From contig CAYGZE010000001.1 of assembly GCA_964354185.1 (NCBI GenBank), positions 1,939-65,938 of the forward strand: 64,000 nucleotides of DNA. The letters are read 5' to 3'. The notes below the pieces were generated by a model that was given only the letters and a program-made list of their open reading frames with translations, did no database searches and was not told where the DNA came from. Positions 2,418 through 28,424 of this stretch are shown one piece after another. Source of the DNA: an uncultured Anaerolineales bacterium. Lineage in GTDB: Bacteria > Planctomycetota > Phycisphaerae > FEN-1346. Within the stretch, counting starts at the first letter, position 1. Every line of letters begins with the position of its first letter. A program made the position numbers and the translations under genes.

Positions 2418-5400
2418 ATGCCTCACAGTCTCCGCAGGAACCTACGCCGGGCCCTGGGGCTCGGTGCGGCGATCGGGCTGTGGGCGGCGGTGGTGCTGGG
2501 CCCGGGTGCCGGATGTCTCCAGGCGCCGCCGTCCGCCGGGCCGCGCGCCGAGGGAGGGCAACCGATGAACATCGTGCCGTTCGGCGAGCCGACCGCCTGG
2601 ACCGGCGAGGGCGGCTGCTGGGGCGCCGGCGTCGTGTGGGAAGACGCGCGCGACGTCTTTCGCGTCGTGGTCAGGTTCGCCGAGGGCGCCGCGCTGCCGG
2701 CCCCCGACGCGGTGCGGCTGGAGTACTGGCAATCGTCGTGGCCGGAGCGGCGGATTCCGCGCGACCGGCCGTCGGGGTCGGGCGGCTCGGGCTGGCTCGA
2801 CGTCGGCGACTGGTTCAACGGCCGCTGGATGCGGGCCGACGCGGCCTGCGCCGCCGAGGGGCGGGCCTGGACCTACACCTTCCGGCCCGTCAGCGCGATC
2901 GAGTTCCCCGCGCTGAAGGATTTCGCGGCGACGTACCGGTCGACGCTGAAACTCCGCGTCGTGTCCGACCGCCCGTTGCCGCCGGTCGCTTCGCTCGAGG
3001 CCTACACCGACTCGGTCTGGCGCGCGGCGGACCTGGAGGTCGAGTGGGGCGGGACGGCCGACCGCGAGCAGGTGTGGGACGGGCGCCTCGAGGTTTTCAA
3101 CGGTTGCGCGGAGGCGGTGCGGCCGCTGTCGTCCGAGACCAGGGCCGCCGGCGCCTCCGGCGACCTCAGGGACGGCTGGCGGTCGCGCGTCCGGGGGCGC
3201 ACCAGCGGCGTGGCCGCCCGCGTCCTCTATGCTGCGCCGCAGGCCTGCAACTCGTTCGATGTGACCGTGGTCACCGTGCGGACGGCCGAGGCGGACCGCA
3301 CGTTCTCGTTCGCCGTGGCGGACGTCGTCCGCGAGGGTCACCTGTTCCTGCCGGACTTCGGCGTCGTCGTGCGACGCGGCGGCGACCGGACCACCTGGTC
3401 GGCCGCCCAAGCGGCCTGGCGCGAGGCCCGGGGCGACCCGCGCCGGACGGACCTCTACGCGCGCGTCGCCGCGATGCCCGAGCAGACGCTCGCCCGCGCC
3501 TGGGGCGACACCCCCGCCAAGGGCCGCCACTACATCCCGCTGAGTTTCGAGGGCGGTAACCAGCACTTCGGGCTGGACGAGCGCGGCTGCGCGTGGGCCC
3601 GCTCGGGCTGCCGGTACGAGTTCGGCCTGCCGCGACGGACCGTCGACGAGCGGACGCTGGTCGACGGCTGCCTGCCCATGGTCGTCGGCGAGTGGCGGGA
3701 GGACGCCGTGCGATACCGCCAGACGGCCTTCGTGGTGCCGCTGCGGGGCGTGCCGGCGCTGGGCGGGCGGATCGCGGCCGACGAGCCGCTCGTCCTCATG
3801 GTCCGCATCGAGGTCGAGAGGGCCGGCGACCGCGATGCCGAAGCCGTGCTGCGGCTGGGCTACGCCGACGGCGACACGCGCCGGCCGATGGCCCTGCGGG
3901 CGAACCTGGGCGTCGATCCGGCCGCGCCGCCGCGTTTCTCGCCCGTGGCCCTGGCGCCCCGCGGCCGGGAGGGCCGCTGGACCCTGAGTGAGGACGGCGG
4001 CCAGGTCGCCTGCCGGGCGGCCCTCACCGGCGGCGAGCCCACCGGCACGCTCGACCTGGCTGTGCCCCAGGTCGTGCCGGGCGATGCGGCCGACCTGGAC
4101 CGGCTGCGGGCGCTGGGCTTCGACGACGCGTTCGCGGCCGTGCGCGACTACTGGCGGCGACGCTTCGACGAAGGATGCCGGGTCTCGACCCCGGAGCCGA
4201 TGATCAACGACTTCTACCGGGCCCACGCCGCCCACCTCCTCATCAACACCGAGCGCGAGCGCGGCGGCAGCGACCGCTACATGGCGCGCGTCGGCACGTT
4301 CCACTACGGCGTCTTCCCGAGCGAGTCGTGCATGATGATCGCCGATCTCGACCGGCGGGGCTACCACGACGTGGCCGAACGGGCCCTGGAGACCTTCGTG
4401 CACTACCAGGGGACGGTCGGGCTGCCGGGCGACTTCTCGGGACCGCGCGGCCAGTTCTACGGCGCGGGCGGGTACGAGATGGGCGGGTACAACCAGAGCC
4501 ACGGCTGGGTCCTCTGGTGCCTGGCGGAGCATTACGGGTACACGCGGGACGACGCGTGGCTGCGGCGCGTGGCGCCGGCGATCGTCGAGGGCTGCGACTG
4601 GGTCGCCCGGGAGCGGCGCCGAATGACGGAGCAGGCGGCCCGGGCGCCGATCCGGGCGATCGAGCGCGGCCTGCTGCCCCCCGGACGCCTGGAGGACATC
4701 GGCGACTGGCGCACCTGGATGGTTACGAATGTCTATTCCTGGTGGGGCATGAGCAACGTGGCCCGGGCCCTCCGGGCCGTCGGCCACCCCGAGGCCCCCC
4801 GCCTCCTGGCCGAGGCCGACGCCTACCACGCCGCCCTCGTGGCCGCGTGCACGGAGGCGATGCGCCGGTCGCCGGTCGTGCGCCTGCGCGACGGCCGCTG
4901 GATCCCCCACGTGCCGTCGGACCTCCACCGGCGCGGCCGCTCCTTCGGCTGGCTCACGGAGACGCTCGAAGGCGCCATTCACCTGGTCATCGCCGGGGCC
5001 GTCGAGCCCCAGGGGCGCCTCGCCACCTGGATCGTCCAGGACTACGAGGACAACCTGTACCTGTCCGAAGAGTTCGGCTATCGCCTCGCGGACGCGGACT
5101 TCGAGAGGCTCTGGTTCAGCCACGGGGGCATCTCGCAGCAGGCCAACCTTCTGAACAACCCGCTGCCGTACCTCTACCGCGACGAGCCGAAGCATTTCCT
5201 GCGGGCCTACTTCAACGCGTTCGCGGTCAGTTACTTCCCCGACACGCGGATGATGACCGAGCACGCGCTGCCGGCGATCGGCGACTGGCGCGGCGACCAC
5301 TACAAGTCGTCCGACGAGGCCAACTCGGCCTGGTGGCTCCGCCTCATGTTCGTGGCCGAGCGGGGCGACGACCTGTGGCTGGGGGCGGCCGTTCCGCGCG

Positions 5401-5699
5401 CGTGGCTGGCCGATGGGCGCACCGTCGGCATCCGCGATGCCCGGACGTACTTCGGGCCGATGTCGATGCAACTGGAGTCGGGGGCGGCCAAGGGCTGGAT
5501 CCGCATGACGCTGGTCCCGCCCACGCGGAACCCGCCGCGCTTCATCCGGGCCCGGTTCCGCCATCCGGACGGCCTGCCCATGGTCCGCTGCGAAGTCGAC
5601 GGCCGGCCGTGTGACCGGTTCGGCCCGGACCGCGACTGGGTCGAGGTGCCGGGGCGCGAAGCGCCGCGCGAGATCACCGCCTACTACGCGGCCCCGTGA
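2418..5699 (+). CDS. large secreted hypothetical protein (1093 aa), possibly an (alpha/alpha)6-barrel glycosidase-like fold
   Basis: ATG at 2418 with RBS AGAGGAGGGG. N-terminal signal peptide MPHSLRRNLRRALGLGAAIGLWAAVVLGPGAGC. Long conserved-looking coding frame with aromatic-rich segments (GGYEMGGYNQSHGWVLWCLAEHYGY, WRTWMVTNVYSWWGMSNVARAL). The track ORF 1929-5699 includes a spurious in-frame N-terminal extension that overlaps the HEAT gene. Confidence 0.65.
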   Translation: MPHSLRRNLRRALGLGAAIGLWAAVVLGPGAGCLQAPPSAGPRAEGGQPMNIVPFGEPTAWTGEGGCWGAGVVWEDARDVFRVVVRFAEGAALPAPDAVRLEYWQSSWPERRIPRDRPSGSGGSGWLDVGDWFNGRWMRADAACAAEGRAWTYTFRPVSAIEFPALKDFAATYRSTLKLRVVSDRPLPPVASLEAYTDSVWRAADLEVEWGGTADREQVWDGRLEVFNGCAEAVRPLSSETRAAGASGDLRDGWRSRVRGRTSGVAARVLYAAPQACNSFDVTVVTVRTAEADRTFSFAVADVVREGHLFLPDFGVVVRRGGDRTTWSAAQAAWREARGDPRRTDLYARVAAMPEQTLARAWGDTPAKGRHYIPLSFEGGNQHFGLDERGCAWARSGCRYEFGLPRRTVDERTLVDGCLPMVVGEWREDAVRYRQTAFVVPLRGVPALGGRIAADEPLVLMVRIEVERAGDRDAEAVLRLGYADGDTRRPMALRANLGVDPAAPPRFSPVALAPRGREGRWTLSEDGGQVACRAALTGGEPTGTLDLAVPQVVPGDAADLDRLRALGFDDAFAAVRDYWRRRFDEGCRVSTPEPMINDFYRAHAAHLLINTERERGGSDRYMARVGTFHYGVFPSESCMMIADLDRRGYHDVAERALETFVHYQGTVGLPGDFSGPRGQFYGAGGYEMGGYNQSHGWVLWCLAEHYGYTRDDAWLRRVAPAIVEGCDWVARERRRMTEQAARAPIRAIERGLLPPGRLEDIGDWRTWMVTNVYSWWGMSNVARALRAVGHPEAPRLLAEADAYHAALVAACTEAMRRSPVVRLRDGRWIPHVPSDLHRRGRSFGWLTETLEGAIHLVIAGAVEPQGRLATWIVQDYEDNLYLSEEFGYRLADADFERLWFSHGGISQQANLLNNPLPYLYRDEPKHFLRAYFNAFAVSYFPDTRMMTEHALPAIGDWRGDHYKSSDEANSAWWLRLMFVAERGDDLWLGAAVPRAWLADGRTVGIRDARTYFGPMSMQLESGAAKGWIRMTLVPPTRNPPRFIRARFRHPDGLPMVRCEVDGRPCDRFGPDRDWVEVPGREAPREITAYYAAP

Positions 5700-5799
5700 C
5701 GGCCCCGGCCGCGCGCTTTGAGGTTGCACGCCGCCCGGCCGCGCCGGTATCATACCGCGGCGTCTGTCTTCCATCTATTCACATTCGGCGAGGCAACGT

Positions 5800-7329
5800 A
5801 TGCTCGGCAAGATCCTCTCGGTCGGCGTGTTCGGCATCGACGGGTACCTGGCGGAGGTGGAGTTCGACGTCCGCGCGGGCCTGCCCGCGGTGGTGGTGGT
5901 GGGGCTGCCGGACGCGGCCGTCAAGGAATCGAAGGACCGCGTGGCGACGGCCCTGAAGAACTCCGGGTACCGGTGGCCCGACGGGCATGTGACGATCAAC
6001 CTCGCCCCCGCCGACACGAAGAAGGAGGGGGCCGCGTTCGACCTCCCCCTGGCCCTGGGGGCCCTGTCGGCCACGGGGCAGATGCTCTCGGACCGCCTGA
6101 AGGACTACGCGGCGGTGGGGGAACTGGCGCTCGACGGGTCGGTGCGGCCGGTGAAGGGCGCCCTGTCGATGGCCCTCACCGTGCGCCAGGAGGGCCTCAA
6201 GGGCCTGCTGGTGCCGGCGGCGAATGCGGCCGAGGCGGCCGTCGTCTCGGACGTCGAGGTCGTGCCCGTGACGGCCCTGGCCCAGGCCGTCGGCTTCCTG
6301 ACCGCCGACCTCGCGATCGAGCCGTGCGCGGTGGACCTGGAGGCGGTGTTCCAGGACGCGCGGCGCGACGAGGTGGACTTCGCGGACGTGCGCGGCCAGG
6401 AGCACGCGAAGCGGGCCCTGACGGTGGCCGCCGCCGGCGGGCACAACGTCCTCATGATCGGCCCCCCGGGGAGCGGGAAGACGATGCTCGCGCGGCGGCT
6501 GCCGACGATCCTCCCCCTCCTGGACCTGGAGGAGTCGCTCGAGACGACGCGCGTCTACTCGAGCGTCGGCCTGCTGGCGCCGGGGCGGTCGGTCATCGCG
6601 ACGCGGCCCTTCCGCTCGCCACATCACACGACGAGCGAGGCGGGCCTGGTGGGCGGCGGAACGTATCCCACGCCCGGCGAGGTCAGCCTGGCCCACCACG
6701 GCGTCCTCTTCCTGGACGAACTCCCGGAGTTCAACCGCCACACCCTCGAGGTCCTCCGCCAGCCGCTCGAGGACGGCCTCGTCACGATCACCCGCGCCCA
6801 GGGGAGCCTGACCTTTCCGGCGCAGATCATGCTCGTGGCGGCGCTGAACCCGTGCCCCTGCGGCTATCTTGGGGACCCCAAGCACGAGTGCCACTGCACG
6901 CCGCGCCAGGTCCAGGCCTACATGGGGAAGATCAGCGGGCCGCTCCTGGACCGCATCGACATCCACCTAGACGTGCCGGCGGTGCCGTACCGGGAACTGC
7001 GCGGCACGGGCGACGGGACGCCGAGCGCGCGCATGCGCGAGGATGTCATGCGGGCCCGCGACGCCCAGGCCGTGCGGTTTGGCGATCGGCGGCTCCTCAA
7101 CGCCCGGATGAGCCACCGCCTGGTCCGCAAGCACTGCGCGCTCGACGAGGCGGGCGAGGGCCTGCTGAAGCAGGCGATGCAGGAACTCGGCCTCTCGGCC
7201 CGCGCCCACGACAAGGTCCTGCGCGTCGCCCGGACGATCGCCGACCTGGAGGGCGCGGAGGCCGTCACGGCCACGCACGTGGCCGAGGCCGTCCAGTACC
7301 GCCGCCTGGACCGGAACCTGTTCGCGTGA
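5800..7329 (+). CDS. yifB: YifB/ComM-family Mg-chelatase-like AAA+ ATPase
   Basis: The N-terminal Lon-like domain (MLGKILSVGVFGIDGYLAEVEFDV), Walker A GPPGSGKTML, the Zn-finger-like CPCGYLGDPKHECHC and the C-terminal EGAEAVTATHVAEAVQYR are hallmarks of the family. Confidence 0.9.
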   Translation: MLGKILSVGVFGIDGYLAEVEFDVRAGLPAVVVVGLPDAAVKESKDRVATALKNSGYRWPDGHVTINLAPADTKKEGAAFDLPLALGALSATGQMLSDRLKDYAAVGELALDGSVRPVKGALSMALTVRQEGLKGLLVPAANAAEAAVVSDVEVVPVTALAQAVGFLTADLAIEPCAVDLEAVFQDARRDEVDFADVRGQEHAKRALTVAAAGGHNVLMIGPPGSGKTMLARRLPTILPLLDLEESLETTRVYSSVGLLAPGRSVIATRPFRSPHHTTSEAGLVGGGTYPTPGEVSLAHHGVLFLDELPEFNRHTLEVLRQPLEDGLVTITRAQGSLTFPAQIMLVAALNPCPCGYLGDPKHECHCTPRQVQAYMGKISGPLLDRIDIHLDVPAVPYRELRGTGDGTPSARMREDVMRARDAQAVRFGDRRLLNARMSHRLVRKHCALDEAGEGLLKQAMQELGLSARAHDKVLRVARTIADLEGAEAVTATHVAEAVQYRRLDRNLFA

Positions 7330-20606: not shown

Positions 20607-21572
20607 TCAGACCTTCGCGCGCGGGTGTCGCCTCGTGTCTTCGACCTGGACGGCGTACCGGCCTTTGCAGAGGACCGGGCTGCCGCGCAGCACCGTCTGC
20701 CCCTGGACCGCGACCTCGACGGCCTCCGTGGCCTGCGTGTCGAGGACGAGCACGTCGCCGGTTTCGAGGGCGACGAGGTCGCGGACAGGGACCTCGGCGC
20801 AGCCGAGGCAGGCCGTGACGGTCACGCTGGCCTGTTCCAGGTGGTGGAGGATGGCCTCGCGCGTCTCGGCCGGGGTCGGCGCCCGCGTCGCGCCTTCGCC
20901 GGGGCGGGCGATGGGGTCCAGAAGTTCGCTTCGCAGGACGAAGGTGATCTCGCCGGCATCCTGATCGCCAAGCGGCCGCAGGGCCAGCGCCCAGAGGTTC
21001 TGGTCGGGCGGGCCGGGCATCGGCTCGTCGGGCGGCAGGATCTGTTCGGCGTGCTGGATCGCGGGTCCGCCGGCGCTGGCGCTTGCGGCCGAGAGGGCGC
21101 GGGTCATGGCGGCGGCCAGGTCCAGCAGGAGCGCGTTCTCGAGGGGCGAGAGGTCGCGGCGCTCGGCGCCGGCCGCTCCTTCGCCGCCGAGGAGTTGCCC
21201 GACCCATCGCAGGGCCGGCCCGGCGGCGAGGCGCAACACGCCGGCGGGGTTTCCGGCGGCGTCGTGGAGCGGAACGCGGTAGCCCTTTGCATCGTCCGCC
21301 CGCGCAGCAGCGGGATAGCACTCCGCGGGCGGGGAGGCTGCCAGGGGGACCTCCGTCCGCGTGAGGGACGACACTGCCTTGGCGATGTCCCGGGCCGCAC
21401 GCCGCGTGAACTCCTCCAGCCGCGCCCGCTGGCCGGGTGTGAAGCGGTGGGGCCGCGCCCAGTCGTACTCGGCGGCCGCGACGTCGGGCCGGCGGGCGGG
21501 GCTGCGGCTGCGGGCCACCGCCCGCAGGCGCTCCAGGATCTGAAGGTCTCGCGCTCGTTCGTGGGCGTTCAT
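20607..21572 (-). CDS. fliM: flagellar motor switch protein FliM
   Basis: Likely start MNAHERARDLQILERL, which overlaps the fliL stop (ATGA). Middle CheC-like domain and a C-terminal SpoA-like domain (VTVTACLGCAEVPVRDLVALETGDVLVLD). The longer track ORF start lies inside fliL. Confidence 0.85.
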   Translation of the reverse strand: MNAHERARDLQILERLRAVARSRSPARRPDVAAAEYDWARPHRFTPGQRARLEEFTRRAARDIAKAVSSLTRTEVPLAASPPAECYPAAARADDAKGYRVPLHDAAGNPAGVLRLAAGPALRWVGQLLGGEGAAGAERRDLSPLENALLLDLAAAMTRALSAASASAGGPAIQHAEQILPPDEPMPGPPDQNLWALALRPLGDQDAGEITFVLRSELLDPIARPGEGATRAPTPAETREAILHHLEQASVTVTACLGCAEVPVRDLVALETGDVLVLDTQATEAVEVAVQGQTVLRGSPVLCKGRYAVQVEDTRRHPRAKV

Positions 21573-22120
21573 GCCACCGTCAGTTTCTTGAACAGGACGT
21601 TCCGGATTTGGGGCTTCGCATCGGGCCACAGCCGCGTGTTGAGGCCGTCGAGAATCTCGCGCTGGAGCCGGTTCAGGTTGGCCGCGCCCCGCAGGTCGTC
21701 CAGGGAGCAACTGGCGAAGTAGACGGTCAGCCAGTTCATCAGGGTCGGCTTGCGGGCGTCGATCAGGGCCTTGACTGCCTCGAAGTCGTTCGAGGCGACC
21801 TCAAGGGTGACGACGACGCAGATGTATCGGGCGAGGCGCGGCTCGTCGAGGTTGACGGTGATGGCGTCGAAGTCGATGTACTGGTACGGCTCCGGGGCGG
21901 GGGGCTTCGGTCCCGCGTCGGCGGCCTCCGGCTGGGGCGCGGGGGCCGGGGCGCCGCCGTATCCGGCGAGCACGGCCGCGCCGTACCCCGCGCCGGCGGC
22001 GATGACCATCACGCCGGCGCAGAGGACGATGAACAGCCGTCCCTTGCCGCCGGGGGATGGGAGTCCCTTGCCGTCGAGGACGGGTTCTTGGTTCTTCGCG
22101 TCCTGCGCTGCTTTTGCCAT
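21569..22120 (-). CDS. fliL: flagellar basal-body-associated protein FliL
   Basis: Start MAKAAQDAKN with RBS AAGGAG. Single TM (RLFIVLCAGVMVIAAGAG), a Pro/Ala linker, then the conserved FliL core (YIDFDAITVNLDEPRLARYICVVVTLEVASNDFEAVKALIDARKPTLMNWLTVYFA). Confidence 0.75.
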   Translation of the reverse strand: MAKAAQDAKNQEPVLDGKGLPSPGGKGRLFIVLCAGVMVIAAGAGYGAAVLAGYGGAPAPAPQPEAADAGPKPPAPEPYQYIDFDAITVNLDEPRLARYICVVVTLEVASNDFEAVKALIDARKPTLMNWLTVYFASCSLDDLRGAANLNRLQREILDGLNTRLWPDAKPQIRNVLFKKLTVA

Positions 22121-22128
22121 GGCTTGGT

Positions 22129-22890
22129 TTACTCCTTTGTCGTGGCTTCCGTCACCGCAATGAGGACATAGACCCGCCCGGGCCCCTTGCCGGCCGCCAG
22201 GTGCCACCGTCCGCCCGACCCGGCGCCCGAGAAGTCGACCCGGGCGCCTCGGTGCCGCGCGTTCGCGTCGATGGCCGCGGCAAGGAACGTGCCGGCGGCC
22301 TTGGCGCGCTCGGCCGACAGGAGCCACTGTCCCGTGGGATCGGGCTCGTCGGGCGCCAGGCCGATGACCTGGAGGACGGTCGTGTGCCCGCCGGCCGGTG
22401 GCTTGAGGCAGGTCACCAGGTCGAGCAGGAACTCCTTCGCCTGGGCGTCGAGCGTCGCGTCGGATGGCTGGAACGCGATCGGCGTGGTGAGGAGGCGCGG
22501 CGGGGGGCCGTCGTCATTCGTCGCTTTCGTCTCGGCCAGGTGGCGCAGGTCGTCGAACACCTTGCGGATCTTCTCGTCCTCGGTGTCGATGACGCGCTCC
22601 TGGTCGAGGTTCTCAGGGTCCTCCTCCATCGGATACTTGGTGCGGATGTTTCCGAAATCGACCCTCTCGTCCTGGCCTGCGAGCAAGTCGGGAATCCCCA
22701 GGTAGTCGATGGCGCGGCGGAAGCCGCCCCGCAGCGTAAGAAACTTGGAGGACGCGTCCGGGTGGGTGGCCATGGCCTGGAGCATGATGAAGAAGGATAG
22801 GAGCAGGGTGGTCATGTCGGTGAACGACACGATCCAGGACGGGAGTCCACCCCCACTTTCACCGCTGGGTCTCCTCCGCAGAACGTTCAC
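22129..22890 (-). CDS. second MotB-like stator protein (MotB paralogue; OmpA-like C-terminal domain)
   Basis: GTG start overlapping the stop of the first motB (GTGA). N-terminal MotB plug/TM (PSWIVSFTDMTTLLLSFFIMLQ) plus a C-terminal OmpA-like peptidoglycan-binding region. It is distinct from, and only distantly similar to, the upstream motB. Confidence 0.65.
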   Translation of the reverse strand: MNVLRRRPSGESGGGLPSWIVSFTDMTTLLLSFFIMLQAMATHPDASSKFLTLRGGFRRAIDYLGIPDLLAGQDERVDFGNIRTKYPMEEDPENLDQERVIDTEDEKIRKVFDDLRHLAETKATNDDGPPPRLLTTPIAFQPSDATLDAQAKEFLLDLVTCLKPPAGGHTTVLQVIGLAPDEPDPTGQWLLSAERAKAAGTFLAAAIDANARHRGARVDFSGAGSGGRWHLAAGKGPGRVYVLIAVTEATTKE

Positions 22891-23567
22891 GGGCACACCT
22901 TTGGGTTCAGGATCGCCAGGGTGACGACCGGCTCGACTTCGGCGCGGGAGCCGCTTTCCCCGACGGCCGTGGAGATACTGAACCGGCCGGACTCGATCCG
23001 CTCGGCCTCGGTCAGGTGCCGGACGATGGCCAGGGCCCTCTGGAGCGCGCGGTCCTCGGCATCCGCGGTCGACGGCCCGGCGGCCACGGTCTCGCAGACC
23101 ACGACCTGGCTGGGGACCAGGCGCAGGTAGGCCGCCGCCTCGGCGAGGAGGGTTTTGCCCTGGGGCGTGACCTGGGCGCCCTGGCCCCAGAAGAGCACGT
23201 CGCTCGGGATGGTGAGGACGCGGCGGTCGCAGTAGGCGTCGGCGCTGCGCACGGGCTCGGGTTTCCGGGGTCGGTAGGTGGGGTCGAGCCGGTCGAAGGT
23301 CGGGACCTCCTGGCCCTCCTCGGTCCGGTCCACCACGGTCGGGGCCCGATCCACGGGCGACTCGAGGGCGAATCGGCGCCTGGCCATGACGGACGGGTCG
23401 GACGGCCCGTCGAACATGCCGACCAGGCGCCCCCCGGCCTCGGTGTCGAACGAGGAGAACGCCAGGAGCAGGACGAAGAATGTCAAGAGCAGGGTCATGC
23501 AGTCGCTGAACGTGACCATCCACTCGTTGCACGAGGACTCCGGCGGGGGCGGTCTTCGGGCTGGCAT
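22887..23567 (-). CDS. motB: flagellar stator protein MotB
   Basis: 226 aa; NEWMVTFSDCMTLLLTFFVLLLAF is the canonical MotB N-terminus and TM, followed by a C-terminal OmpA-like domain. It lies immediately downstream of motA (1-nt gap). Confidence 0.82.
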   Translation of the reverse strand: MPARRPPPPESSCNEWMVTFSDCMTLLLTFFVLLLAFSSFDTEAGGRLVGMFDGPSDPSVMARRRFALESPVDRAPTVVDRTEEGQEVPTFDRLDPTYRPRKPEPVRSADAYCDRRVLTIPSDVLFWGQGAQVTPQGKTLLAEAAAYLRLVPSQVVVCETVAAGPSTADAEDRALQRALAIVRHLTEAERIESGRFSISTAVGESGSRAEVEPVVTLAILNPKVCP

Positions 23568-23568
23568 G

Positions 23569-24339
23569 TCAGACCTCCGGTTTCAGTTCTGTGCGGTGCC
23601 GGGAGGACACGAACGCCTGCATCCGCTCTCGGACGGCCGTGGGTCCCTCGCCGCGCACCACGGCCAGGAGGCCCTCGATGAGCATCTCCTTCTGGAGCGA
23701 CTCGCCCTTGGAGCGCAGGCCGAGTTTCCCCGCCAGGGGAATGAAGACGAGGTTGGACAGGAGGGCGCCGTAGAAGGTGGTGATCAGGGCGGTGGCCATG
23801 CCGACGCCGATGCCGCTGGGGTCCGAGAGGTTCCGCAGCATCTGCACGAGGCCGATGAGCGTTCCGATCATGCCGAAGGCGGGCGCGCTGCCGCCCATGA
23901 ACTCCAGGATCTTCTTGCCGTCCTGGTGGCGCTCCTGGAGGTACTGGACCTCCAGGCCGAGTTGCTTCCCGATGGCGTCCTCATTCTGGCCGTCGATGAG
24001 CATCTGCATGCCCTTAATGAGGAACGGGTCGCGCAGGCCCCGGACCTGCTCCTCGAGGGCGAGGGGCCCGTCGCGGCGGCTGATGGCGGCGTAGTTGACC
24101 ATCTGCTGGACCAGCGCCTGCTCGCTCGGCAGTTGGTCGAACACGGCCTTCTTGACGACGGAGAAGATCCGGAGGACCTGTCCCATGGAGAAGTGAATCA
24201 TGGTGGCGGAGAGCATCCCGCCGACCGTAATCAGGACGGAGGGGATGTCGAAGAAGACGCCCATGCCCCCGCCGCCGTACATGGAGACGAGGATGCACGT
24301 GGACCCCGCGATCAGCCCCACGATCGTCGCAATATCCAT
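23569..24339 (-). CDS. motA: flagellar stator protein MotA/PomA
   Basis: 256 aa; four TM helices and the conserved MotA/TolQ/ExbB core (GGSAPAFGMIGTLIGLVQML...GVGMATALITTFYGALLSNLVFIPLAGKL). Confidence 0.9.
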   Translation of the reverse strand: MDIATIVGLIAGSTCILVSMYGGGGMGVFFDIPSVLITVGGMLSATMIHFSMGQVLRIFSVVKKAVFDQLPSEQALVQQMVNYAAISRRDGPLALEEQVRGLRDPFLIKGMQMLIDGQNEDAIGKQLGLEVQYLQERHQDGKKILEFMGGSAPAFGMIGTLIGLVQMLRNLSDPSGIGVGMATALITTFYGALLSNLVFIPLAGKLGLRSKGESLQKEMLIEGLLAVVRGEGPTAVRERMQAFVSSRHRTELKPEV

Positions 24340-24342
24340 GGT

Positions 24343-24996
24343 TCAGCCCTCGATGCGGACCCGTTTCATCATGTCGCTCAAGCGGGCGGCCTGCTCCTTG
24401 TCGCTCATCTCGGCCAGGACCTTGGCCACCGCGCGTTCCGTCATGTAATGGAGGATCTTGACCGCATCGATTTCCTGGCTGTTCTTGCACATGCTCTCGA
24501 AGATGCGGCTGGCGGCGTCGGCGGCCATTTTGTCGTAAATGGCGGCCGTGCGTTTGAGGTTGACTTCCTCGTCGCGGCGGAGGGCGACGCGGCTGCGATC
24601 GAGGGTGTCGCGCGCCTGCTTCAACTGGCTGACCTGGGTGGCCAACTCGACGCGGAGGTTCTCCAGTTCCGCGGTCTGTTTTTCGAGGTCCTGGCGCGCG
24701 ATGCCGAGCCGCCGCTGCTCTTCCTGAAGTTCCTTCTCGCGTCCCTCGCACTCGCGGAGTTTGCCCCGGACCTCGCGGATCAGGGCCTGGAGTGCCTGCT
24801 GCTCCGTCAGCGCGGACGGGTTGAGCAGCGTGGAGAGTTCCTCGGGCTGGGGGCCCTTGGCCGCCGCCTGAGGGGCCGGCTCGCCGGCCGCCTCGGTCGG
24901 TTTCGCCCCGAGCCAGTGGCTTGCCAGATAGGTGCCCGCGAAGGCGGCCCCGGCCAGGACGACCAGAACCAGGATCTTCAGCATCTTGCCGTGCAT
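24343..24996 (-). CDS. flagellar-operon protein with an MgtE-N-like domain (FlbB/MotE-like), membrane-anchored
   Basis: 217 aa; N-terminal TM (MLKILVLVVLAGAAFAGTYLA), a coiled coil, and a C-terminal AAIYDKMAADAASRIFESM...EIDAVKILHYMTERAVAKVLAEMSDKEQAARL that resembles the MgtE-N/FliG-C-like helical motif of flagellar FlbB/MotE proteins. Confidence 0.45.
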   Translation of the reverse strand: MHGKMLKILVLVVLAGAAFAGTYLASHWLGAKPTEAAGEPAPQAAAKGPQPEELSTLLNPSALTEQQALQALIREVRGKLRECEGREKELQEEQRRLGIARQDLEKQTAELENLRVELATQVSQLKQARDTLDRSRVALRRDEEVNLKRTAAIYDKMAADAASRIFESMCKNSQEIDAVKILHYMTERAVAKVLAEMSDKEQAARLSDMMKRVRIEG

Positions 24997-25005
24997 GGGC
25001 GTCTC

Positions 25006-25473
25006 CTATTCGAGGGCGGCAGCGGGTGACGGCGCTGCCTTTCGTGCGAAGGCGAGGTGGGCCTGCTCGTCGAACTCGCTCTGCTCGCGTTTGGCCACCT
25101 GCCGCAGGTAGTCTTCCCGTGCCTGTTCGCGCATGCGCTCGAGCGTCTCGCGCATGGACCGCGTCTGGAGGAATCGCTTCCGCTTGCGGGCTCGCTCGGC
25201 CTCGAGTTCGGCGAGGCGGGCGTCGAGGCGCCTCAGTTCGCGCTGCTCGCCGGCCGAGTAGGCCATGACGACCGCCTGCTCGGCGAGGCGGTCGGCCAGG
25301 GGGTGGCGGCCCACCTCCTCCAGGAGGATCCGCAGGGCCGTCCGGCGCTCGACAATCGCCCGGCGGACGCGGACGACGGCCTGGGCCAGGGCGAACAGTT
25401 CGCTCCTCAGGGCCTTCTCGCGCTGGGCGGTGATGTCCAGCACCCGCTCGAGTTTCCACCGGAACTTTTTCAT
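25006..25473 (-). CDS. fliJ: flagellar export protein FliJ
   Basis: 155-aa coiled coil beginning MKKFRWKLERVLDI (the FliJ signature F-R-[FW]-K-L-E-x-[VL]-L). Its start overlaps the fliI stop. Confidence 0.7.
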   Translation of the reverse strand: MKKFRWKLERVLDITAQREKALRSELFALAQAVVRVRRAIVERRTALRILLEEVGRHPLADRLAEQAVVMAYSAGEQRELRRLDARLAELEAERARKRKRFLQTRSMRETLERMREQAREDYLRQVAKREQSEFDEQAHLAFARKAAPSPAAALE

Positions 25474-27422: not shown

Positions 27423-28424
27423 TCAGGCCTCCTCGAACCGTAGGTCGCCCTTCGTGTTCAACTCGCGCAGGCCCCCGAGGATCGCGGTGCGGGCCTGCTC
27501 GATCTCCTCGGCCTTCGGGGCCCTCATGAGGGAGGTTTCCTCGGCGATGGCGGCCCTGGCGCGTTCGGAGACGTTCGCGCGGACCTTCTGGTCGATAGCG
27601 GGGTCGGCGCCGTTCAGGGCGAGGGCCAGTTGCTTGGCCTCGACGCCCCGGAGGACCTCCTGGAGGCTGCGATCGCTGACCTGGGGGACGTCCTCCCAGA
27701 GGACCATGAGGTTGCGGATGGCGGTGGCGGTGTCGGCGTCCTGCTCGCCGATGGCCTTGACGAGGCCGTTGCGCAGTTCGGTCTTGACGGTCCGGAGGAG
27801 GACGGCGACGCGGCGGAGTCGGCTCTGGGGCCCGGCGGCGGCCTCGCCGCCGGCCGCCTCGCGGAGGTCGTCGAGGCGCTTCCGGACGATGGCCGCGATC
27901 CGCTGGCGGGCCTCGGGTGACGCCAGGGCGCCGCCCGTCAACTGCCGGACGGCGTCCACGCGGACGGCCTCCGCCAGGAGCGGGATGACGGCACCGCTCT
28001 TGTCGGGCGGGAGTTCCGAGAGGATGAGGGCGACCACCTGGGCCGGCTCGCCTTCGAGGGCCTGGCCCAGCAGGGGGGCCGCGGCCGACCGGATGGGAAT
28101 GAACGGGTCGCGCACGTCCACCCGCCGGCGGATCTCGCTCAGAAGTTCCTTCGACTGCTTCTCGCCGACGGCGGCCTCGAGCATCCGCTGGATGAACGTC
28201 TCGTGGCTGACGCCGGGGCCCGTGCCGCGAAGCATCCCGCAGAACTCCTCCATCGGCTTGGCCTTGGGGGCGCCGGCGTGCTGGCCGGTGGCGCCGAGGT
28301 AGGCGAGTTCGGTGGCGATCTCGGCGACAAGGTCCGGTCGGGCGGCCTTGAGCAACTCGGCCGCGGTCACGGGGTCGAGACCCATCAGGAGCAGGGCGGC
28401 TTTTCGGATCGTGCTGGATGCCAC
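27423..28424 (-). CDS. fliG: flagellar motor switch protein FliG
   Basis: 333 aa; armadillo-like repeats and the C-terminal torque helix region (VRANVSERARAAIAEETSLMRAPKAEEIEQARTAILGGLRELNTKGDL). Confidence 0.9.
   Translation of the reverse strand: MASSTIRKAALLLMGLDPVTAAELLKAARPDLVAEIATELAYLGATGQHAGAPKAKPMEEFCGMLRGTGPGVSHETFIQRMLEAAVGEKQSKELLSEIRRRVDVRDPFIPIRSAAAPLLGQALEGEPAQVVALILSELPPDKSGAVIPLLAEAVRVDAVRQLTGGALASPEARQRIAAIVRKRLDDLREAAGGEAAAGPQSRLRRVAVLLRTVKTELRNGLVKAIGEQDADTATAIRNLMVLWEDVPQVSDRSLQEVLRGVEAKQLALALNGADPAIDQKVRANVSERARAAIAEETSLMRAPKAEEIEQARTAILGGLRELNTKGDLRFEEA

Follow-up and report, generated by a model that had tools for sequence, protein, structure and literature searches.

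The window analysed here is a stretch of 64,000 nucleotides (nt) from an uncultured Anaerolineales bacterium (GenBank assembly GCA_964354185.1, contig CAYGZE010000001.1, positions 1,939–65,938 of the forward strand; GTDB lineage Planctomycetota, Phycisphaerae). Its minus strand carries a flagellar operon in which a single gene for a stator A subunit, motA, is followed by two overlapping genes for different B subunits, termed motB1 and motB2 (proteins B1 and B2). The open reading frame (ORF) map, combined with Pfam and NCBIfam profiles, gave the operon order fliG-fliH-fliI-fliJ-X-motA-motB1-motB2-fliL-fliM-fliN-fliO-fliP, in which X denotes a gene discussed below. The motA gene (23569–24339, minus strand, 256 residues) was assigned by the Pfam MotA_ExbB profile (92.5 bits), and its top NCBIfam models were PomA and MotP, each scoring under its equivalog cut-off. 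It encodes the sole A subunit of the operon and window, as a tblastn search of the 64 kb found no second motA/motB homologue; the term "single motA" applies to this scope. The motB1 gene (22887–23567, minus strand) starts with ATG and encodes 226 residues, while the 253-residue product of motB2 (22129–22890, minus strand) is a MotB-type subunit that is divergent and specific to its clade. None of the stator parts is unusual in itself; what is new is the conserved module of one A and two B subunits, which includes a MotB subfamily, that of B2, hitherto uncharacterised.

The two B genes meet in a GTGA tetranucleotide (22887–22890, minus strand), in which the GTG start of motB2 (22890–22888) overlies the TGA stop of motB1 (22889–22887), the 3′ end of motB1 reading ...AAG GTG TGC CCG TGA. 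From this GTG, the motB2 frame runs for 253 codons and begins with VNVLRRRPSGESGGGLPSWIVSFTDMTTLLLSFFIMLQ. In the same frame, a further GTG precedes this one by 6 nt, at 22896, and either start overlaps motB1; position 22890 is the likely one, because the resulting 4-nt overlap is the register common to most orthologous loci. From its layout, the GTGA overlap is predicted to couple translation of motB2 to that of motB1. The original prediction, derived from the letters of the window, had described a motA followed by a motB and then by an ORF whose GTG overlaps the motB stop. This arrangement was confirmed by the coordinates given above and by the peptides quoted at the time, NEWMVTFSDCMTLLLTFFVLL being present in the translation of B1 and PSWIVSFTDMTTLLLSFFIMLQ in that of B2.

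Both proteins were recognised by the Pfam MotB_plug profile (PF13677, gathering score 24 bits), with E = 4.4e-13 and 49.0 bits for B1 and E = 1.1e-09 and 38.1 bits for B2, well outside what chance would give. The Pfam OmpA profile (gathering score 27.2 bits) scored ~22 bits in both window proteins and thus remained sub-threshold, which is why the OmpA fold was assigned by structure prediction and Foldseek instead. AlphaFold2 models computed from family alignments showed, for both proteins, a transmembrane (TM) helix, a plug-like helix, a disordered linker and a confidently predicted C-terminal α/β domain, and each protein starts with a short basic cytoplasmic N-terminus. Foldseek searches of the PDB with the C-terminal domains of B1 and B2 returned OmpA-like folds at probability 1.00, including the C-terminal domains of H. 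pylori and Salmonella MotB. A MotB-type plug and TM segment joined to an OmpA-like C-terminus, as had been proposed for the second ORF, is therefore borne out by the 38-bit MotB_plug match together with the AlphaFold2 and Foldseek OmpA fold.

The N-termini of B1 and B2 align to the TM and plug segment of solved MotB and PomB structures, with B1 Asp22 and B2 Asp25 on the channel aspartate. Residue conservation was scored over 56 paired B1/B2 species, and the TM aspartate (the equivalent of E. coli D32), which had been singled out as the residue to check, is kept in both families (55/55 species for B1 and 56/56 for B2). The TM core TLLLxFF is identical in the two families, each of which also has residues of its own at other positions, namely Cys23 in B1 (47/56 species) and Met26 (56/56) and Gln38 (55/56) in B2. 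When the two window proteins were compared by BLASTP, the TM segment alone was detected, with 45% identity over 38 residues. A profile–profile comparison, in turn, matched them with 98.8% probability over 220 columns at ~19% identity. Because homology spans 220 columns at this low identity, B1 and B2 are, by profile comparison, full-length and very old paralogues, and neither is a fragment. The periplasmic linkers, described earlier as very different, do diverge between B1 and B2, as do the OmpA-like domains, and both regions are conserved within each family.

In B1, the TM helix spans residues 15–38 (23454–23525, minus strand; AlphaFold2 helix), with the codon of Asp22, invariant in the family alignment, at 23502–23504, and the segment is almost PomB-like. 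The OmpA-like domain (residues ~114–222; 22902–23228, minus strand) was modelled with predicted local distance difference test (pLDDT) values above 90 and up to 98, and its Foldseek matches in the PDB comprised PA0833, OmpA-C, MotS-C and H. pylori MotB-C, with E values of 4e-9 to 1e-6. Pfam OmpA is precomputed in only 2 of the 120 B1-family clusters. The B1 family profile matched Clostridium sporogenes MotB (6ysf) over its full length at 92 bits, and of the two family profiles, that of B1 also gave the higher scores with generic single MotBs of other phyla. As solved and generic MotBs alike match B1 better, B2 is, on this measure, the derived copy and B1 the conservative one. The position of the aspartate of the peptidoglycan-binding GHTD motif is variably Ala, Ser or Pro in the B1 family, "setsae" being aligned to "EGHTDN" of 6ysf in the hidden Markov model (HMM) alignment, and Arg177 (codon 23037–23039) is kept at ≥90%. 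The first gene had been called a canonical motB. This description stands for closeness to generic MotB (92 bits against Clostridium MotB, versus 36 bits for B2) but fails for the GHTD aspartate, which is lost, so that B1 may be termed canonical for its N-terminal half and its overall similarity, but its peptidoglycan-binding motif falls outside that description. The B1 linker is poorly conserved, except for a motif DRTE-G-SE-PT at residues ~80–92 (DRTEEGQEVPTF; 23269–23314, minus strand), in which Gly85 is invariant and Glu87 is kept at ≥90%, and which aligns to RETGSD in Clostridium MotB. This stretch could be a candidate binding site for another periplasmic motor component.

In B2, the TM helix covers residues 21–42 (22765–22830, minus strand; AlphaFold2 helix), with the Asp25 codon at 22816–22818, and the residues M26, T28, L29, L30, F33, F34 and L37 are invariant in 56/56 species. 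The plug-like helix (residues 46–62; AlphaFold2 helix) carries the conserved pattern F..GQGGFRRAI.GLG. A further helix, residues 103–122, precedes the C-terminal domain as it does in MotB. The OmpA-like domain itself (residues ~129–250; 22141–22506, minus strand) was assigned from AlphaFold2, with pLDDT values of 80–94, and from Foldseek, the best PDB matches being OmpA-C, AbOmpA, OprF and H. pylori MotB-C. Arg195-Ala196 (codons 22303–22308) is invariant. The canonical aspartate position is occupied by Pro, and Asp181 (codon 22348–22350, motif GLAPD), conserved at ≥90%, follows one residue later; in the HMM alignment of B2 with MotB, "iglApd" stands against "sGHTDN". The exact (G/N)xTD peptidoglycan-binding motif is thus found in neither paralogue, and the Arg of LSxxRA is found in both. 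For the peptidoglycan-binding residues, whose examination had likewise been suggested, the outcome is divided: the Arg is retained in both proteins, but the canonical Asp is replaced in B1 and one residue out of register in B2.

The B2 profile scored 36–41 bits against solved MotBs (36 bits against Clostridium MotB). Homologues of B2 fall into 36 clusters of ~250 residues from Planctomycetota/Phycisphaerae, with Pfam OmpA recorded in 24 of them, and 165 clusters were recovered at E ≤ 1e-30 when 1.84 billion representative proteins were searched exhaustively with the B2 profile. The family alignment contains 29 invariant columns across 20 divergent sequences. By these profile searches, B2 represents a discrete, moderately sized and derived MotB subfamily that was previously uncharacterised.

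Conservation of the trio was assessed with the B2 profile, which was run against a single genome of each species and returned ~58 loci from Phycisphaerae/Planctomycetota. The order fliJ-X-motA-motB1-motB2-fliL-fliM was recovered by tblastn in every one of these B2-found loci that was long enough to judge. As a B2-seeded scan alone would be circular, look-ups were also seeded with the exact sequences of five divergent MotB1 homologues, and a B2-type gene was found directly downstream in 5/5. The pair is thus conserved in related genomes, a check called for at the outset, with the trio present in ~58 species loci and in all five B1-seeded look-ups. Overall, the synteny of the trio was seen in >60 loci, and loss of either B copy was observed in none of the lineages examined. 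Of 57 usable motB1–motB2 junctions, 40 overlap by 4 nt and 8 by 1 nt, the remainder being short gaps except for one of 134 nt. B2 orthologues are 239–258 residues long, and mean pairwise identity is 0.34 for B1 and 0.36 for B2; the pairwise identities of the two families correlate (r = 0.84), as expected from their common phylogeny. With a metagenome contig from ENA (L082, ~92% identical) as the closest relative, the ratio of non-synonymous to synonymous substitution rates (dN/dS) was 0.31 for motB2, 0.38 for motB1, 0.34 for motA and 0.33 for fliL. Hence, motB2 is under purifying selection. Loss of the channel Asp or of the OmpA fold, decay into a pseudogene and absence from related loci, each of which the original prediction had regarded as fatal to a second MotB, were all looked for and none was found.

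Several loci depart from this pattern in instructive detail. In three Sedimentisphaerales-like contigs (L080, L085 and L086), which were among the five B1-seeded look-ups, fliL, fliM and fliN are missing 3′ of motB2 and fliO comes next, with the trio intact; since the trio persists there without these genes, it acts as a self-standing unit that does not depend on the other operon genes. In L085 (3617–4465), the public gene call of the B2 orthologue begins past the TM segment and yields 233 residues with a weak OmpA match. A longer ORF holds a B2-type TM helix with its Asp (YLVTFSDMTTLLL), and no ATG, GTG or TTG lies near the motB1 stop, so that this orthologue has either a miscalled start site or a non-standard start. 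Outside the Phycisphaerae-type count, a Planctomycetota metagenome-assembled genome from a bog (L072, 4173–8004) encodes motA, two divergent MotB-like genes, a fliL-like gene and fliM. The MotB-like genes (4956–5681 and 5678–6415) overlap by 4 nt, both encode the TM Asp (SFTDM and TMCDM), and the second is weakly B2-like (34 bits versus 16). Because L072 carries such an overlapping pair with a weakly B2-like second member, the B1/B2 pair may be older than the Phycisphaerae.

A comparable arrangement was observed in ~10 loci of Desulfovibrionales (L057, 4217–7118, and L058, L061–L065, L067, L070 and L075; Desulfovibrionaceae/Desulfomicrobium), which show the order motA-motB-a-motB-b-fliL-fliM. 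Here, motB-a and motB-b are separated by a 1-nt gap, and the TM Asp is present in both products. The first has GHT(A/S) and R-V at the peptidoglycan-binding positions, and the second is canonical, with GYTD, LSAERA and NRRVE. For both Desulfovibrionales proteins, the Phycisphaerae B1 profile gave the higher score and the B2 profile the lower. Orthology of these pairs to B1/B2 was accordingly rejected, and the same scores point to an independent duplication.

The site 11 residues past the TM Asp (Asp+11) is implicated in ion selectivity, being Val in B subunits of the H+ type and Leu in those of the Na+ type; it was compared between the paralogues of the 56 species. The B1/B2 combinations were LL in 27, MM in 18, ML in 8, LM in 2 and IL in 1, that is, concordant in 45/56 and discordant in 11/56. 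The window, with Leu33 in B1 (23469–23471) and Met36 in B2 (22783–22785), is one of the two LM-discordant species. On a rough neighbour-joining tree of MotA, which provides few events, nine changes were reconstructed in B1 and five in B2, of which three fell on the same branch. This co-variation is suggestive only, and is compatible with a common tuning of the two chains, whether B1 and B2 form a heterodimer or two separate homodimers.

Among the flanking genes, fliL (21569–22120, minus strand; Pfam FliL, 50.8 bits) lies 8 nt 3′ of motB2 in the same operon and is syntenic with the trio in nearly all related loci. Upstream, fliG (27423–28424) and fliJ (25006–25473) are members of the operon on the same, minus strand. 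Gene X, between fliJ and motA (24343–24996, minus strand), encodes a 217-residue protein in which a TM segment at the N-terminus and a coiled coil are combined with a weakly MgtE_N-like C-terminus, its sole profile matches, both weak, being MgtE_N (E = 0.0026) and collar_FlbB (E = 0.04). Its position between fliJ and motA is kept in nearly all related loci, and its product may be a stator- or collar-associated protein of the YlxF/FlbB/MotE type. Large flagellar operons of the Bacillus/Borrelia type run fliG-H-I-J ... motA-motB-fliL-M-N-O/Z-P, with fliK, flgD and flgE between fliJ and motA or fliL. The gene order of the window resembles this type, but without the hook genes fliK, flgD and flgE between fliJ and motA/fliL.

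Taken together, we consider it highly probable that B1 and B2 are genuine, co-expressed stator B subunits that work with the MotA of the operon. That the TM Asp, the helix around it and the plug are invariant in B1 as well as in B2 is an argument for both lining the ion path inside the MotA ring. Starting from the observed domain content, conservation, synteny, coupling and purifying selection, a mechanism can be proposed that would cover assembly with MotA, heterodimer formation and a division of labour. Being co-transcribed and translationally coupled, motB1 and motB2 would be expressed together in fixed proportion, and one B1 and one B2 would enter each MotA5 ring, giving a stator of 5:1:1 composition where 5:2 is usual, and the OmpA-like domains of B1 and B2 would form a heterodimeric pair. 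Anchoring to peptidoglycan would fall to B2, given that it keeps Arg-Ala, a conserved Asp close by and, ahead of the domain, a helix of the kind typical of MotB. B1, having lost the canonical Asp and possessing its own conserved linker motif DRTE-GSE-PT, would contact another periplasmic component of the motor.

Several considerations lend weight to such a B1·B2 heterodimer. MotB is an obligate dimer, so co-expressed B paralogues should heterodimerise by default unless selected against. The genes are coupled, and both were retained in every lineage examined; degeneration of the peptidoglycan-binding motif affects one copy only; and the same asymmetry recurs independently in the Desulfovibrionales. 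The degeneration is complementary, as B1 lacks the Asp and is rarely seen by Pfam OmpA, and B2 has Arg-Ala and the shifted Asp. On these grounds, the full heterodimer model is tentatively preferred to a model of two homodimers, at a probability that we would put a little below even. In its strongest form, this reading posits an obligate 5:1:1 stator with a B1·B2 heterodimeric axle, non-equivalent Asp helices and a single peptidoglycan-competent OmpA domain, a design that would have arisen independently in the Desulfovibrionales and perhaps in Aquifex; we regard this as possible, yet with a good deal less than an even chance of being correct.

A number of points weigh against the heterodimer. 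We know of no instance in which a heterodimeric MotB has been demonstrated, and the physical association of B1 with B2 is predicted here from the genes alone. Each paralogue appears to possess all that a self-sufficient MotB needs, which would make homodimers equally feasible. The division of labour in peptidoglycan binding is speculative, neither paralogue having the exact GHTD. The co-variation at Asp+11 may result from common phylogeny or from a common coupling ion alone. The count of motA genes covers the operon and the 64-kb window, and further copies elsewhere in the genome are possible. The TM segments of the two Aquifex MotBs, tested as chimeras, each work alone with MotA in E. coli (PMC4525482), and even for AglQ/AglS the choice between hetero- and homodimers is open (PMC9389320).

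The strongest competitor, to which we likewise assign a substantial though clearly less than even probability, is the formation of two homodimeric stators, MotA5(B1)2 and MotA5(B2)2, which would have the A subunit in common and be recruited according to load, ions or anchoring site via their periplasmic regions. It accords with the full set of MotB features in each of B1 and B2, and with linkers and OmpA-like domains that are very different between the families and conserved within each. It is also in line with the separate function of the Aquifex MotA/MotB1 and MotA/MotB2 chimeras (PMC4525482) and with dual and hybrid stator motors, which are well established (PMC9039648). However, known alternative stators normally come with their own A subunit and separate regulation, whereas the B genes here overlap and are obligatorily co-expressed, and the retention of both copies in every examined lineage is unexpected for partly redundant alternatives. 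Moreover, a stator made of B1 only would have two domains without the canonical peptidoglycan-binding Asp, and co-translated paralogues could be kept from forming heterodimers only by specific selection.

Alternatively, B2 (or B1) might be a non-conducting, MotB-derived periplasmic anchor or scaffold, in the manner of MotY, FlgT or PflB. This we consider improbable. B2 is indeed far from generic MotB (36–41 bits, versus 92 bits for B1, against solved MotBs) and its conserved periplasmic motifs are clade-specific, and many polar motors employ additional OmpA-like proteins for anchoring (PMC7990780). Yet a mere anchor would not be expected to show a conserved plug helix or a TM Asp that, like M26, T28, L29, L30, F33, F34 and L37, is invariant in 56/56 species. 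MotY-type proteins are periplasmic and lack the TM and plug segments of MotB, and the same argument holds for B1. A MotY-like anchor, one of the possibilities raised in the original prediction, is therefore disfavoured, as a protein of that type would need neither the invariant TM Asp nor the MotB plug nor the TLLLxFF core of B2; the other two possibilities it named, alternative stator compositions and a heteromeric pair of B subunits, correspond to the two models weighed above.

Still less probable, in our estimation, is that B2 pairs with another protein of the MotA/ExbB/TolQ type encoded elsewhere and merely hitch-hikes in the flagellar operon. The counting of A-type genes in the 64-kb window only leaves room for such a partner, but motB2 is strictly linked and coupled to motA-motB1 throughout the class, even where the downstream genes differ, and it sits between motB1 and fliL inside the flagellar operon. 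Finally, that motB2 is a decaying remnant of a duplication or an ORF artefact, a concern at 71% G+C, where long spurious ORFs abound and the mechanical ORF runs 467 residues upstream across motB1, can be dismissed with near certainty, being ruled out by an intact ORF of ~250 residues in >60 loci, a 165-cluster family, a dN/dS of 0.31 like that of its neighbours, a domain confidently folded by AlphaFold2 and the 29 invariant columns across 20 divergent sequences.

To our knowledge, all solved flagellar stators are MotA5MotB2 assemblies with two identical B chains, and rotary models assume equivalent, alternating Asp sites. A class-wide, coupled pair of very different B subunits with one MotA constitutes a natural experiment on this assumption. 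If the heterodimer is correct, the stator is intrinsically asymmetric, and ion binding, plugging and anchoring could be mutated separately in each B chain, which is impossible in a homodimer; should the same design also have arisen in the Desulfovibrionales and perhaps in Aquifex, B heterodimers would represent a recurrent, overlooked stator architecture. If two homodimeric stators are formed instead, the motor would be a hybrid that makes do with a single type of A subunit. The module resembles the structurally characterised MotA5MotB2 and PomA5PomB2 units (PDB 6ysf, 6ysl, 6ykm and 8brd) in its MotA_ExbB A subunit and in B subunits with TM Asp, plug and OmpA-like domain. It differs from them in the presence of two B genes per A gene and in that neither B has the exact GHTD or a C-terminal strand motif of the NRRVE type.

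MotY of the Vibrio/Pseudomonas T-ring is a secreted periplasmic protein without the TM and plug segments or the channel Asp of MotB. Its OmpA-like domain, the feature in which it can be compared with B2, binds peptidoglycan and helps to keep stators in place at the motor; B2 differs by its TM and plug segments and channel Asp, all invariant. Dual-stator motors, such as PomAB/MotAB of Shewanella, MotAB/MotCD of Pseudomonas and MotAB/MotPS of Bacillus, pair each B with an A subunit of its own (PMC9039648). They have in common with the present system more than one B type for one motor, and periplasmic domains whose differences may tune recruitment, but they are encoded at separate loci under separate regulation, with one A per B, whereas here a single A is combined with overlapping B genes.

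One A-type and two different B-type subunits, each of the latter with the TM Asp, are likewise encoded together by exbB-exbD1-exbD2 operons. The AglR/AglQ/AglS motor of Myxococcus belongs, like the products of these operons, to the 5:2 family, and its one A-type and two different B-type subunits, both with the TM Asp, are encoded together. Unlike the proteins of the window, those of AglRQS and exbB-exbD1-exbD2 are not flagellar, their B subunits are similar to TolR/ExbD and lack an OmpA-like domain, and there is no orthology. Whether AglQ and AglS form hetero- or homodimers is explicitly stated not to be known in a review (PMC9389320).

The nearest flagellar counterpart is the motA/motB1/motB2 operon of Aquifex aeolicus, whose MotBs are 97% identical in their TM regions and 23% identical in their periplasmic regions, and whose complexes in vivo have not been established (Takekawa et al. 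2015, PMC4525482). As in the window, a single motA precedes two motB genes of the same operon, whose products each have TM, plug and OmpA-like segments and diverge in their periplasmic parts. In contrast to Aquifex, the TM regions here are only ~45% identical over 38 residues, with nearly fixed paralogue-specific residues, C23 (B1) versus M26 (B2) and Q38 (B2), and the pair is old, class-wide, encoded by overlapping genes and not orthologous to any characterised pair. Within the library searched, look-ups on stators of Phycisphaerae and Planctomycetes, on two MotBs, on MotB heterodimers and on Desulfovibrio motB pairs yielded no account of the Phycisphaerae or Desulfovibrionales pairs, the sole precedents recovered being Aquifex and AglRQS. 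Operons with one A and two B subunits, of which Aquifex was the one known case, are now found in at least three further lineages, including the Desulfovibrionales, among which Desulfovibrio is genetically tractable.

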